Virus record (IMG/VR): IMGVR_UViG_2737471843_000003 | Coordinates: 1-14,020 of that record | Origin: a virus | Lineage: Duplodnaviria > Heunggongvirae > Uroviricota > Caudoviricetes | Length of the DNA stretch: 14,020 bases | Direction: 5' to 3' (one strand) | Shown here: one piece after another, positions 1 through 8,106 of the stretch | Numbering within the stretch: position 1 is the stretch's first letter | Layout: the number at the start of each line of letters is the position of its first letter | The notes under the pieces: model-generated | Database searches by the model: none | The model's input: only the letters and a program-made list of their open reading frames with translations | What the model was told of the DNA's origin: nothing | Program-made: the position numbers and the translations under genes

Positions 1-342
1 ATGATGAAAAAAAGTATTCTGACGTTTCTGTTACTCACCAGTTCTGCAGCGGCGCTGGCTGCACCGCAGGTGATTACCGTCAGTCGTTTTGAAGTGGGTA
101 AAGACAAATGGGCGTTTAATCGCGAAGAGGTGATGCTGACTTGCAGACCGGGTAATGCTTTGTATGTCATTAACCCAAGTACCCTCGTGCAGTATCCTTT
201 AAACGATATCGCACAAAAGGAAGTTGCCAGTGGGAAGACTAAAGCCCAACCCATTTCGGTGATTCAGATTGATGATCCTAACAATCCCGGCGAAAAAATG
301 AGTCTGGCACCGTTTATAGAACGAGCTGAAAAACTCTGTTAA
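1..342 (+). CDS. yebY: Small secreted protein with N-terminal signal peptide, DUF2511/YebY-like
   Basis: ORF track 113 aa. The N-terminus [23 protein letters not shown] looks like a Sec signal peptide with an AxA cleavage site. I recognise the sequence as E. coli YebY from memory, not from a search. A hairpin plus T-run follows the stop. Confidence 0.6.
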
Positions 343-371
343 TTACCTAAAATAGCCTTTTGATTTCCAAT

Positions 372-413
372 AAAAAAACCGCCTCAGTTCTTTCACCAGA
401 ACGGGCGGTTTTT
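372..413. terminator. Rho-independent terminator downstream of yebY, A-run / GC stem / T-run, potentially bidirectional
   Basis: AAAAAAACCGCC at 372-383 pairs with GGCGG at 404-408, with an inner GTTC/GAAC pairing, followed by TTTTT at 409-413. The A-run on the other side would make it usable from the minus strand as well. Confidence 0.6.
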
Positions 414-469
414 AACATTTCAGCTGATGACCACCACGCTTTTTATTGACCATTTTGCACGCAAACTGG

Positions 470-500
470 AAAACCTGGCGTCGTCATCTATTCTTAAAGG
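470..500 (+). promoter_or_regulatory. Sigma-S-type promoter for sdsR
   Basis: A -10 element TATTCT at 489-494 preceded by C at 488 (the -13 C typical of sigma-S promoters), placed 6 nt upstream of the proposed SdsR 5' end at 501. No convincing -35 element. Confidence 0.45.
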
Positions 501-569
501 GCAAGGCAACTAAGCCTGCATTAATGCCAACTTTTAGCGCACGGCTCTCTCCCAAGAGCCATTTCCCTG

Positions 570-603
570 GACCGAATACAGGAATCGTATTCGGTCTTTT
601 TTT
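570..603 (+). terminator. Intrinsic terminator of SdsR
   Basis: GACCGAATAC (570-579), loop AGGAATC, GTATTCGGTC (587-596), then TTTTTTT (597-603). Read directly from the sequence. Confidence 0.75.
581..603. other. Putative attL core, the last ~23 bp of sdsR
   Basis: A tyrosine integrase gene ends 130 bp downstream. The terminal 23 bp of ryeB/sdsR has been reported as a recurrent phage attachment site in Salmonella and E. coli. The exact crossover cannot be determined from one junction. Confidence 0.4.
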
Positions 604-640
604 AATTGTATTTAAAATCAATTAGTTGCAAACGTCTCCC

Positions 641-670
641 CGAAATTACTCGAAATTTACTCGAATTTCT
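641..670 (+). repeat. Three tandem 10-11 bp direct repeats, candidate arm-type integrase binding sites
   Basis: CGAAATTACT (641-650), CGAAATTTACT (651-661), CGAATTTCT (662-670), read directly. They sit between the putative core and the int 3' end, like the P'1-P'3 arm sites of lambda attP. Confidence 0.4.
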
Positions 671-734
671 GTATTCCGGTCTTTTTTGGTTATATCACAA
701 CCAAAACACATTTAACAATCCATTTACGTTAAAA

Positions 735-1811
735 TCAGAGCAGTAAGTACGTTTTTTCTCTCTCATCAAGATACATTTTTGTTGTCTTCTCCGATGTGTG
801 GCCAAGTAGACGTTGAGCAAATTCTTCCCCACATGTTTCTTTGTACAATCGTCCAGCCAGGCTTCTGATCTCGTGAAAAGTTGGTGGGTTTTCACTGAAC
901 TGGATACCTGTTAATTTTCTGGCTGCGACAAATTTTTTTGTCAGGCCGTCCGGGTGAATGCTGCCGTCAGGGCTGTTTTTTCTAATCCCGGCACTGATTA
1001 GAAAATCTCCCCGGCTTACCAGGCGGCACCGTTCAACTACTGTACCAAGACGTAAACCAGCGACCGGAAGGCTGAGTGACAGGGGGATAGCAATCATCAT
1101 TCCTGTCTTAATTTGCCTGATGTGAAGACGATCATCATAAATATCACTGAACCGCATATTCGTTATGTCTTCGCGACGTTGTCCTGTTACAAGGGCTAAG
1201 TCCATAGCTAATGGGAACCATGCCGGAAGTTGATCTGCTGCCTCCCTGATGCAGTTGTATGTCTTTAGTTTCAGCCGTTCTCTTGTAACTACTATTTTCG
1301 GTGCTCTTGTTGGCGTTACTGGATTTTGAGATATACGCCCTTCAACAATGGCTTCGCGGAACATATCAGATAACACAGAACGCATTGATCCTGCCATCGT
1401 GTTTTTCCCTCCTTCAATCCACAAATCAAGAAACTCGGCAATATGGCGAGTGGTTATTTCTGTCAGTAAGATCCCTCCTAATTTTTCTTTTATTGTTTCC
1501 AGTTGATTTCCCCGAATTTTATAAGTATTTCTGGACACTTTTCTCCTTATAAGAATCGTTTTGTAACGTTCAATCCAGTCTGCCATAGTAAATGAGTCGA
1601 ACCCTTTAAGTTTTTCAATTAAGGCAGCAGGAGAGTAGTTTTTGTATATATAATGATTTGCTTCAATTGCCTGCGCGATTGCATCTCTTCTTGAAATTTT
1701 ACCTAGTGTAAATTCTTCTTTCGTAAGAGGGTTGCGCCAGTAATATGCTTTGTCCCTCCTTCGATATGTTAAGTTCCTAGGCAAATTGGGATCGTATTTT
1801 TTCCGCTGCAT
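735..1811 (-). CDS. int: Tyrosine recombinase, lambda Int-family integrase
   Basis: ORF track 358 aa. The N-terminus resembles the lambda Int arm-binding domain. The C-terminus carries the catalytic signature [11 protein letters not shown]...[15 protein letters not shown] (R, HxxR, Y). Its start overlaps the xis 3' end. Confidence 0.9.
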
Positions 1812-2058
1812 GTTTTAACTTCTCCAGTAACGGACTGTCTCTCCCTTGTCGCCCATTAGGCTGATGGTGTGTTATATCGGTATCAACCTTATTTGGGTTG
1901 ATATAGAAAGCCTCCGGAACCACCCTGTAACTCCTCCCGTGTAGTTCAGGTGCAGGATAAATGTTTCCATTCCTTGCCCATCGTCTCAGCGTTGATATTG
2001 ATGGTGGGTTATCCGGATATCTGAGTTTTCCCCACGTTTTGAGTGTCACAAGATTCAT
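1777..2058 (-). CDS. xis: Excisionase (Xis-like)
   Basis: The pattern VTLKTWGKL...STLRRWARNGNIYPAPELHGRSY resembles the lambda Xis winged helix. It overlaps int by 35 bp. I prefer the start at 2058 (AGAGG 7 nt upstream) over the track start at 2064. Confidence 0.7.
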   Translation of the reverse strand: MNLVTLKTWGKLRYPDNPPSISTLRRWARNGNIYPAPELHGRSYRVVPEAFYINPNKVDTDITHHQPNGRQGRDSPLLEKLKHAAEKIRSQFA

Positions 2059-2080
2059 TGCCATACCTCTTACGATATGA

Positions 2081-2164: not shown

Positions 2165-2353
2165 TCACGAGGGCCGAAGTTTCTCGCAATTAAAATTTAT
2201 CAGCTTTACTTTCTGCTCTCTGGAAACGCCTGCTTCTTTTTTCCCCGAGAGCATTTTTTCGCATTCTGATTTAGTTAGTTTAGATTTTGAATATCTTGTC
2301 CAGTTAGTAGGAGTGCCACCTTCCTTTTCAATAGTGGCGGTAATTTTATACAT
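2165..2353 (-). CDS. Small hypothetical phage protein, 62 aa, at the Rac ydaC position
   Basis: In frame with track ORF 2165..2425. An internal ATG at 2353 is preceded by GGAGG with 5-nt spacing, and overlaps the lar stop by 8 bp. The family is not confidently recognised. Confidence 0.5.
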   Translation of the reverse strand: MYKITATIEKEGGTPTNWTRYSKSKLTKSECEKMLSGKKEAGVSREQKVKLINFNCEKLRPS

Positions 2354-2603: not shown

Positions 2604-3707
2604 TCAGGAGCCGATATATTCTGGTTTCATATCTGTCAGTGTCGTTTTATACGCCTCATATAATTCACCCAGATGTGGTCGTGCAGCATTCAGCGTATTT
2701 TCCAGAGCAGTAAATTTTTGTTCTGCTTCTGGATCACCTGATGAAGGCAGGTCATTTATCATCTTCTCGATACTGGCAATAGCATTGAGACGGTGATGAC
2801 GCCGAACCACTTTTCCTTTAAGCTCGGCAAAGAATTCGCCGATCTGGTTTTTCTGATCCTCTATCTCTTGGCGTAATGCAGTGGTTTCCTCAGTCGTGGC
2901 CGCGCTTTCTATACGCTGCCGGAATTCATCAATCCACGCTTCGTCAATACGCTGTTCGATGGTTTCTGTTCGCTGCTCGCTTACCTCGCTATAATTCTGT
3001 ACCGACACAGGATTGATGATTTTTTCCTGTGGCTCTTCCAGTTCGTCCGGGGTATACACGCCCAGGATGACGTCAGGACAATAAAGGCGAGCCCAGTATT
3101 TCAACGCCAGATAGGCGAGCTGTTGTTTCGGGTTTGAGGTCCATAAAGGAGAATTACGCGTAATCACGCTGGAAAGAAACACCGGTTCTCCCCAGGTAAT
3201 CTCACTTTCACCGCGAAGAACTGCACCAACTCGAACTGAGAGACCATACTCATCTTCACTGGTCCAACATGGGATCGTTTCTTTTTTCTCATAGATTCCG
3301 CCTCCTTTGGCCGTTTTCTTAACGATCTCCACTCGGGTGCGAGAGCATTTCTCCCAGTCTCCCTCGTACTTGTAATGGAAGCGACCTACAATTGCACTTG
3401 AGCTAGAGATCACAGCGTTAACCAGTTGTGCTTCATAACCCAGAACTCCGTTTACCAGGTGTGTTTTCTGAGCCACAGCGTAGGGGTTCATGCCCCATTG
3501 CATAGCTTGCATGATGATTGCCATGCAGTCGGCAGGATTTCCGCGAAGGTGATCGGGAACTGTGACGGTGGCCTGTGCCATCAACCCGGCTACTGCCTGA
3601 AGTTGCGTCAACGCCTGAACGTTAAAAATAGTGTTACTGGCAGAAATGGTATTTGGTGTCTGCTCTGTCGTGATGATATTGGTATTTTGCATGGTCAGGT
3701 TCTCCAT
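2604..3707 (-). CDS. Single-strand annealing protein, RecT/Redbeta superfamily, partner of RecE
   Basis: ORF track 367 aa. The core ADCMAIIMQAMQWGMNPY...VNGVLGYEAQLVNAV fits the RecT/Redbeta pattern. It sits immediately downstream of recE with a 1-nt stop/start overlap. It is clearly not the canonical 269-aa K-12 RecT sequence. An alternative start at 3692 has GGAG upstream. Confidence 0.7.
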   Translation of the reverse strand: MENLTMQNTNIITTEQTPNTISASNTIFNVQALTQLQAVAGLMAQATVTVPDHLRGNPADCMAIIMQAMQWGMNPYAVAQKTHLVNGVLGYEAQLVNAVISSSSAIVGRFHYKYEGDWEKCSRTRVEIVKKTAKGGGIYEKKETIPCWTSEDEYGLSVRVGAVLRGESEITWGEPVFLSSVITRNSPLWTSNPKQQLAYLALKYWARLYCPDVILGVYTPDELEEPQEKIINPVSVQNYSEVSEQRTETIEQRIDEAWIDEFRQRIESAATTEETTALRQEIEDQKNQIGEFFAELKGKVVRRHHRLNAIASIEKMINDLPSSGDPEAEQKFTALENTLNAARPHLGELYEAYKTTLTDMKPEYIGS

Positions 3708-7697: not shown

Positions 7698-8106
7698 AAT
7701 TATCTCCATTTTTACAAATGAATTTTGTCGATGCGGTGCCTGGTGCCTCCAGGTGACGTTAACCAGTTAACAATTAACGCCGGATATTTCACCCATAACT
7801 CTGCTACGAAGGACAATAGCTTTTTAACTGTTCCGCGTGCGCTTAGCCGCATTCACCGCATCACAAAATTCACTTTAAAAAGGGGCGGCAGGGCAGCCAC
7901 GGAGTAGAACTGATGCCGCCAAAGACTACACACAGCAATGTCGTTATTTACAACCGGAGGCGCACTCCCACCATTTAAATTTAACAGACAAAACCGACTC
8001 TTTATGAATACCGGAAATGCGCCTTCGTGTTGTGCGCCTGTCTTTTTACCACTTCAGGCTCGGTGGTATACTGGAGTTCTCACACAACCAGTAATAAGGT
8101 ATTCCT

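Follow-up and report, generated by a model that had tools for sequence, protein, structure and literature searches.

Location of the attachment site

Where does the bacterial chromosome end and a prophage begin at the 3' end of the small RNA gene sdsR, and how is the DNA between sdsR and the phage integrase gene organised? Both questions are raised by the left end of a 14,020-nt stretch of viral DNA (IMG/VR record IMGVR_UViG_2737471843_000003, hereafter called the window), which starts with yebY (1-342), continues with sdsR and the antisense SraC/RyeA, and then passes into phage genes, where int and xis are followed by RalA/ralR, recT, recE, and DicF. Judged from the sequence, positions 570-734 very likely represent the left attachment site, attL (B-O-P'), of a lambda-type temperate phage that resides in the rho-independent terminator of sdsR/ryeB. 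The genes concerned are as follows.

463-607, minus strand: SraC/RyeA-homologous segment, antisense to sdsR (Rfam RF00101, 179 bits)
504-603, plus strand: sdsR (ryeB) sRNA gene (Rfam RF00111, full length, 118 bits against a gathering score of 38)
735-1811, minus strand: int, lambda-type tyrosine integrase of 358 aa (Pfam PF00589, PF22022, and PF09003, all above their cut-offs)
1777-2064, minus strand: xis (excisionase), overlapping the start of int (Pfam PF07825 Exc, 52 bits)

The original prediction had the integrase gene ending about 130 bp past an intact SdsR terminator. The distance from the SdsR end to the stop codon of int, an open reading frame at 735-1811 on the minus strand, is 131 nt, and the integrity of the terminator is confirmed by the full-length Rfam match and by a fold of the SdsR RNA that is the same in the window and in Escherichia coli K-12 (-32.5 kcal/mol each). 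This terminator, GGACCGAATAC-AGGAATC-GTATTCGGTCT followed by T7, is the sole terminator-like site found by a scan of positions 350-900.

Comparison with 5426 complete E. coli genomes separates bacterial from phage DNA. Window positions 1-604 are matched in every one of these genomes (5426/5426), and 228 of the matches run on into this int. In 5191 genomes a K-12 probe that reaches from sdsR to pphA aligns without a break, which means that the yebY-sdsR-pphA locus is uninterrupted, and positions 589-734 are missing at all of these empty sites. The view that 604-734 is ordinary chromosomal DNA is thus contradicted. Prophages of this type occupy sdsR in approximately 4% of the complete E. coli genomes, and related phages occur across enterobacteria. 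The collection contains no genome identical to the window; the one that matches it best is that of E. coli RM8082, with 99.5% identity over positions 1-1900.

Strand exchange within the SdsR terminator

The junction was mapped in a six-way alignment that compares four kinds of site: the attL of the window, attB of K-12, attR of two E. coli lysogens, and attP of a phage. The latter was taken from the sequenced phage PP818812.1, which shares 98.9% identity with the window in Int and is 97.9% identical to window positions 573-1811. In PP818812.1 the P arm, the core, and the P' arm are contiguous and make up an uninterrupted attP, which reads ...gttgacgaaaACAGGAATCGTATTCGGTCTTTTTTTAATTG... and continues into the P' arm found at window positions 604-734; attP-type junctions with this order of arm, core, and arm are also present in 27 viral contigs among the matches listed. 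The right junction of the window itself falls outside the window, and attR was read in RM8082 and Z1323CEC0010, where it adjoins pphA and has the order phage P arm, gacgaaaACAGGAATCGTgTTCGGTCTcTTTTTATCTG, chromosome. The features derived from the alignment are listed below.

570-579, plus strand: left terminator stem GACCGAATAC, proposed core-type Int site on the bacterial side (B/C); forms a mismatch-free inverted repeat with 587-596
578-588, no strand assigned: strand-exchange interval ACAGGAATCGT, delimited by reciprocal alleles at 577 and 589
580-586, no strand assigned: proposed 7-bp overlap AGGAATC, which is the terminator loop; flanked by 10-bp inverted repeats
587-596, plus strand: right terminator stem GTATTCGGTC, proposed core-type site C'; phage-supplied from 589 and identical in attP
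589-734, no strand assigned: P' arm of attL, including the phage-supplied SdsR end (589-603); matches PP818812.1 and is absent at empty sites

The attL of the window carries the bacterial T577 together with A589 and T599, two alleles that are the same as in phage attP and unlike those of K-12 attB and of attR. The attR sequences show the reciprocal pattern, with the phage A at the position of 577 and the K-12 alleles G at 589 and C at 599. The strands were therefore exchanged within 578-588, inside the terminator. In keeping with integration by such an exchange, the core direct repeat that had been expected at the right junction exists: ACAGGAATCGTrTTCGGTCTyTTTTTA is found in attL of the window and RM8082 and again beside pphA in attR of RM8082 and Z1323CEC0010. 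Between the core of the window and K-12, identity extends over approximately 27 bp with two mismatches.

The original prediction had located the left junction at the sdsR 3' end, which is correct with respect to the locus, but the strands were not exchanged at position 604. A junction at 604, with a wholly bacterial SdsR in which A589 and T599 are mere host polymorphisms, would account for the fact that similarity to K-12 stops there and that the megablast alignments to E. coli genomes all reach 604. However, the free phage attP has exactly A and T at these two positions, and attR of the lysogens examined keeps the G and C of K-12, the reciprocal pattern that an exchange to the left of 589 predicts. 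A junction at 604 is consequently very unlikely.

Within the exchange interval, the overlap region can be narrowed further. The 10-bp terminator stems form a perfect inverted repeat around the 7-nt loop. The left stem is degenerate in attP (GAC-GAAAAC), and the right stem reads GTGTTCGGTC in K-12 attB and in attR. Among the matches listed, 20 distinct left flanks of attP from other lineages show identity to attB over 8-10 bp to the left of G587, so that in the shortest cases the shared segment begins at A580; its right limit is 588. Together with the perfect inverted repeat, this points to the loop AGGAATC (580-586), flanked by putative cleavage positions, as the most likely overlap and to both stems as probable core-type Int sites.

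One sequence counts against the proposed exchange interval. A related assembly (L009) has a G at the position of 589 in its attL, which is either an assembly error, or an allele of the phage, or the result of an exchange farther to the right.

The attL cores of two genome records that encode an Int with 94% identity, L008 (4220-4290) and L009 (4215-4235), are odd. In L009 the G at the position of 589 is accompanied by GGTTCTTTTTTT, and in L008 several changes are spread across both stems. Either faulty assembly or genuine variation that weakens the SdsR terminator may account for these cores. Many lineages (viral contigs L016, L018, L020, and others) target a second form of the sdsR terminator present in hosts, AGACCGAATATAGGAATCG..., and their attP shares only (T)AGGAATCG to the left. 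The existence of this target indicates that the site is used in other enterobacterial genera.

Consequences for SdsR and RyeA

The sdsR gene of the lysogen is intact yet chimeric, as it is bacterial to at least 577 and phage DNA from 589 at the latest. Because the exchange took place inside the terminator, the 3' stem and the U-tract are supplied by the phage, and SdsR positions 589-603 are phage DNA. A phage that provides a matching 3' end had been postulated, and this is what the alleles shared with attP and the reciprocal attR demonstrate. SdsR differs from its K-12 counterpart by these two bases: A589 changes a U-G pair of the stem to U-A, and with T599 the U-tract is uninterrupted, the tail changing from UCUCUUUUU to UCUUUUUUU.

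The antisense gene is affected differently. The position of the RyeA start in K-12, derived from the coordinates of the constructs in PMC6610125, is approximately +141 from the start of sdsR, which puts it approximately 40 nt past the 3' end of SdsR, on the right-hand side of the crossover. Consequently, the prophage displaces the ryeA promoter, approximately 60 nt of the ryeA 5' end, and pphA from sdsR, by approximately 42 kb as measured in RM8082. Their position shows that the RyeA-complementary segment at attL lacks its native promoter and 5' end, both of which remain on the attR/pphA side. A simple promoter scan missed the K-12 ryeA promoter. As a candidate for a phage-borne substitute promoter, a sigma-70-like site at 632-605 on the minus strand was considered, but a single match equals the level of shuffled sequences. 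Promoter-like sites at a similar position in 11 of the 29 lineages listed, compared to 19% of the shuffles, leave a substitute promoter unsupported.

The SraC/RyeA Rfam match is full-length up to 607, which places its first approximately 19 nt (589-607, minus strand) on phage-derived DNA, and the RyeA start in K-12 (PMC6610125) lies approximately 40 nt beyond this end of the match. The consensus of the RyeA model, AAUUAAAAAAAG, is closer to the phage-type junction than to K-12 CAGAUAAAAAGAG. A further observation concerns E. coli 17MR471 (L005 3149-4300), where a copy of ISApl1 is inserted in the sdsR-pphA spacer right after the sdsR terminator. This locus is one of the exceptions at which the K-12 probe is split, and the insertion, which is unrelated to the phage att, disrupts the region of the ryeA promoter independently.

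Integrase, excisionase, and probable arm-type sites

The integrase contains the Phage_integrase domain (PF00589, 61 bits against a cut-off of 27), a Phage_int_M domain, and at residues 4-61 the arm-binding domain Arm-DNA-bind_1 (PF09003, 29.7 bits against a cut-off of 22). It shares 39% identity with lambda Int over 347 aligned residues, its N-terminus aligns with lambda Int from residue 9, and the catalytic residues R212, K235, H308, R311 (the H-x-x-R motif), H333, and Y342 are all matched in the alignment. The neighbouring Xis is 29% identical to lambda Xis, and the same gene is annotated as excisionase in RM8082. Arm-type sites are expected for a lambda-type Int with an arm-binding N-terminal domain, and the original prediction had pointed out three tandem repeats of 10-11 bp between core and int and their likeness to the lambda P' arm sites. 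The repeats are located as follows.

638-648, plus strand: candidate arm-type repeat 1 (P'1-like), CCCCGAAATTA; CGAA core at 641, +53 from the start of TATTCGGTCT
649-659, plus strand: candidate arm-type repeat 2 (P'2-like), CTCGAAATTTA; CGAA core at 651
660-670, plus strand: candidate arm-type repeat 3 (P'3-like), CTCGAATTTCT; CGAA core at 662

In the window the CGAAA cores of the repeats are located at +53, +63, and +74. Tandem Repeats Finder (TRF) reports 641-665/668 with a period of 11, 2.4-2.7 copies, and a score of 40-43, for which the default threshold is 50. A repeat search pairs 643-653 with 654-664 at 91% identity. The motif CYCGAAATTT (with at most one mismatch) is not enriched in the window, where it was found 5 times versus 3.25 times expected. 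With a TRF score below the threshold and no enrichment in the window, the repeat is weak evidence as far as the window alone is concerned, and its reality rests on comparative data.

Relatives were collected by tblastn against a phage collection and by scanning viral contigs for the DNA pattern TATTCGGTCT N35-60 CGAAA N5-7 CGAAA, which occurs at a minimum of 119 loci; a protein-based scan of genome contigs yielded two close relatives, apparently low-quality assemblies. The comparative set, made up of the matches listed, the window, and the loci fetched earlier, comprises 112 loci with an sdsR core, which have 100 unique P' arms, 46 distinct repeat triplets, and Ints with 43-99% identity that form 16 clusters at 80%. 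As the pattern demanded two CGAAA, only the third repeat, the offsets, the motifs on the P arm, and the half-site copy described below count as independent observations. The first CGAAA lies at +52/53 from the start of TATTCGGTCT in 111 of the 112 loci listed, although the pattern permitted 45-70. Repeats 1 and 2 are spaced by 10 bp in all 112 (10-12 permitted), and a third CGAA, which was outside the search pattern, follows 11 bp past the second in 109. Among 25 representatives of the loci listed (<75% identity), column conservation comes close to its maximum in the CGAAA cores and drops to approximately zero in the spacers. The triplet claimed at 641, 651, and 662 is thus a conserved feature. 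Even diverged phages such as ZC-S1_prp from Salmonella (Int 74%) and Flyfo siphovirus Tbat2_3 (Int 51%) share the layout of the window: core, spacer, three tandem CGAAA repeats, and a TATTC(C)GGTCT element.

The motif recurs on the opposite arm. In the 27 attP contigs listed, the P arm contains two to three copies of CGAA[A/T] between -152 and -131, in the same orientation and at approximately -152, -142, and -131, again outside the search pattern; in PP818812.1 an exact CCCGAAATTT is located at -150 (L004 2862-2871). Taken together, the repeats at 638-670 are likely three Int arm-type sites equivalent to lambda P'1-P'3, in agreement with the resemblance noted originally, which the arm-binding domain of Int and the recurrence of the triplet on the P arm make plausible.

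The repeats might instead bind Xis, another accessory protein, or some other regulator. Excisionases, too, bind tandem direct repeats in att arms, and among the loci listed no covariation of the Int N-terminal domain with the bases flanking CGAAA was evident: a single 80% Int cluster holds the repeat variants GTCCGAAA, CCCCGAAA, and AAACGAAA. However, the motif is present on both arms, with a triplet beside int and two or three copies between -152 and -131, which is the pattern of lambda Int; the Xis sites of lambda are restricted to the P arm. Moreover, PF09003 scores above its cut-off in this Int, and the N-terminus is strongly conserved across the clade (YDxNLPxNLTYR...WRNPxTxxE..LG.I.RxxA..QAIEAN), parallel to the invariant CGAAA core. 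Recognition by a protein other than Int is therefore improbable. A functionless chance feature of AT-rich intergenic DNA, as the TRF score of merely 40-43 and the missing enrichment in the window might suggest, has a negligible probability in view of the fixed offset and the 10+11 bp spacing in 109-112 of the 112 loci listed, which persist across 46 triplets although the adjoining spacers are practically unconserved.

Two viral contigs, L057 and L058, have two CGAAA repeats, not three, before the core-like half-site. Hence, the third site is not absolutely required.

Candidate IHF site and core-like half-site

Two further elements flank the repeats.

616-628, plus strand: IHF consensus site AATCAATTAGTTG (H'-like); sole exact match to WATCAANNNNTTR in the 14-kb window
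671-682, plus strand: core half-site copy GTATTCCGGTCT (GTATTC(C)GGTCT), directly after repeat 3

The candidate IHF site ATCAATTaGTTGCAA is nearly the same as ATCAATTtGTTGCAA, the H' site of the lambda P' arm, and ATCAATT-GTTGCAA is present in both. Exact IHF consensus matches at one of two fixed offsets occur in 14 of 29 related lineages listed, compared to 0.45% of shuffled sequences, and a YAANNNNTTGATW-like element follows the repeats on the P arm. These findings argue for an IHF bend site between the core and the arm repeats.

In all 26 representative lineages listed (26/26), a copy of the core half-site lies at +9/10 from the third CGAA, and in these 26 lineages it agrees with GTATTCGGTCT at a mean of 8.5 of 11 positions, compared to 5.9 in shuffles. 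In addition, the motif of the arm repeats, CCGAAAT, differs little from that of the core half-site, CCGAAT. Owing to these two resemblances, P'3 and 671-682 together mimic a shortened sdsR terminator palindrome. One may tentatively regard 671-682 as a fourth Int-binding element that has no counterpart in the lambda model. One Int protomer could bind arm- and core-type DNA in cis at this place, or the element could act as a decoy or assembly site. If it exists, such a fourth element would be an undescribed variation of intasome architecture.

Alternatively, the segment 660-690, which comprises repeat 3, GTATTCCGGTCT, and a T-run, might be a second transcription terminator instead of a protein-binding site. 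It would then halt either read-through from sdsR, which is documented (PMC6610125), or late phage transcripts that run antisense into int. The segment indeed looks like the 3' half of the SdsR terminator followed by T6. However, the hairpin predicted for 655-692 has just -2.5 kcal/mol (z = 0), the terminator scan made no call there, and many lineages retain the half-site but lack the T-run (for example ...GGTCTAAA). As no stable RNA hairpin forms at the half-site copy, a role in termination is unlikely, whether it concerns sdsR or late transcripts, and a backup terminator at 655-692 was rejected as the main function on the grounds of the same folding values.

Proposed mechanism of integration and excision

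The phage brings a 3' stem and a T-tract of its own, so that SdsR is rebuilt with two base changes. According to the proposed model, Int would use the stems of the terminator as core-type sites, with the loop AGGAATC as the overlap region. The P' arm would be organised as in lambda, with an IHF bend (616-628) followed by three helically phased arm-type sites. The N-terminal domain of Int would bind the CGAA cores at 641, 651, and 662, and Int would thereby bridge arm and core; a further core-like half-site (671-682) is situated past the arm sites. Excision would employ the adjacent Xis and the matching P-arm sites at attR. The right junction expected from the model, next to pphA, would consist of the P arm, ACAGGAATCGT, and bacterial GTTCGGTCTC.

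Prophage context

Some observations outside the attachment site concern the prophage. The full-length gene of the antitoxin sRNA RalA is located at window positions 2169-2347 (plus strand) together with ralR, a type I toxin known from the Rac prophage, and DicF, an sRNA known from Qin, is encoded at 7883-7934 (minus strand). Along with recE/recT, kilR, and ydaT-like genes, which are also present, this characterises the early region as a Rac/Qin-like mosaic. The same att and P arm are associated with different prophage bodies. In Z1323CEC0010 (L006 1-3000) the body carries nleG7, which encodes a type III effector, and tail fibre genes similar to those of lambda, and in RM8082 it contains a serine acetyltransferase and a tail module of the baseplate type. 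Phage bodies that are unrelated to each other thus exchange the int-att module.

The P arm contains a hairpin with a perfect 14-bp stem, AGCTGCGGCACGT...ACGTGCCGCAGCT, approximately 300 bp beyond the core (L004 2706-2745). The same hairpin is found in L003 at approximately 27690-27730 and in L006 at approximately 2705-2745. It has a predicted energy of -28 kcal/mol (z = -4.3) on the int-sense strand and could be a retroregulation element similar to sib/tI or the terminator of a late operon.

PP818812.1 (L004) was deposited as 'Actinobacillus phage vB_Apl-pPE4', infecting Actinobacillus pleuropneumoniae. The core of its attP (2700-3170) equals the 3' end of E. coli sdsR. Its Int shares 98.9% identity with the Ints of E. 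coli prophages, and the P arm hardly differs from the flank of attR in E. coli Z1323CEC0010. It is possible that the host label is wrong and that the sequence belongs to an E. coli prophage or a contaminant instead.

Comparison with known systems

The present analysis maps, at the level of single bases, an att system that is in wide use although little is known about it, including the crossover interval, the proposed overlap, the candidate IHF site, the arm sites on both arms, and an additional core-like site. For genome annotation, it implies that prophage boundaries at sdsR belong inside the terminator and not after it. In lysogens SdsR is partly phage-encoded and is unlinked from the promoter of the ryeA antitoxin and from pphA. 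As the insertion site is an already published hot spot, the finding is an ordinary one, if correct in itself; the addition made here, a fine map for this Int clade, is modest, and nothing in it challenges the current understanding. By its sequence features, the system would be classified as a lambda-type Int/att system and would fit in with the ryeB-targeting prophages.

Similarities to lambda include the three domains of Int, its catalytic residues and 39% identity over the full length, the homologous Xis, and the overlap of int and xis. With the positions of the lambda sites as given in the literature of the Landy laboratory, the ATCAA of the IHF site is situated at approximately +34 from the overlap centre here and approximately +33 in lambda, with a near-identical ATCAATTnGTTGCAA; the three tandem arm sites begin at approximately +55 and +52, respectively, with the same 10/11-bp spacing; and the distance of the P-arm sites is similar as well. 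Unlike lambda, which targets the gal-bio attB, the present phage uses the sdsR terminator. Its arm consensus reads (C/T)CGAAAWW, compared to C/AAGTCACTAT in lambda, and all copies on the P arm are oriented like those on P'. Furthermore, approximately 64 bp with the core half-site copy separate repeat 3 from the int stop codon, whereas lambda P'3 abuts int, and the arm and core half-sites of the present system resemble each other (CCGAAAT and CCGAAT).

The closest precedent by description is the Salmonella phage PhiW104. Its integration at ryeA/ryeB reportedly goes back to Balbontin 2008 (J Bacteriol 190:4075). Two later papers place the PhiW104 att within the last 23 bp of ryeB, inside ryeA, and describe that the ryeB 3' end is regenerated, that the 5' portion of ryeA is replaced, and that the locus is a recurrent hot spot of insertion (PMC7380047, PMC3333887); the hot spot at ryeB in Salmonella is also covered in PMC3603311. 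Both systems have in common a site inside the ryeB 3' end and ryeA, a rebuilt 3' end, a direct repeat of the core, and an empty site elsewhere. They differ in the host species and the phage, and the likeness is one of description and not of int or att sequences. The original prediction of a recurrent attachment site for lambdoid phages is borne out in E. coli and other enterobacteria, with PhiW104 as the precedent (PMC7380047). PhiW104 lysogeny is reported to lower RyeA and raise RyeB (PMC7380047, citing Balbontin 2008), and SdsR levels may likewise change in the lysogens considered here. Arm-type sites of PhiW104 or of this Int clade are not mentioned in the secondary literature consulted on ryeB integration.

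A broader analogy exists with the integrases that target tRNA and tmRNA genes. For these, PMC3603311, citing Williams 2002, describes symmetric stems as the half-sites and a 7-nt loop as the site of crossover. Shared with them are a stem-loop of an RNA gene as the target and a replacement 3' end supplied by the phage. In contrast to tRNA and tmRNA genes, the target here is the terminator hairpin of an Hfq-dependent sRNA, and the antisense ryeA is disrupted as well. Genomic islands named 'RyeB' in the style of Islander/TIGER, such as Cfr111.52.RyeB (PMC10111431), and the Yersinia prophage vB_Yen_24-YE00064, which lies next to yebY and has a 27-bp att (PMC12653942), are, by their descriptions, located in the same chromosomal neighbourhood and have a similar att length. 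This shows that the sdsR/ryeB site is used across the Enterobacterales.
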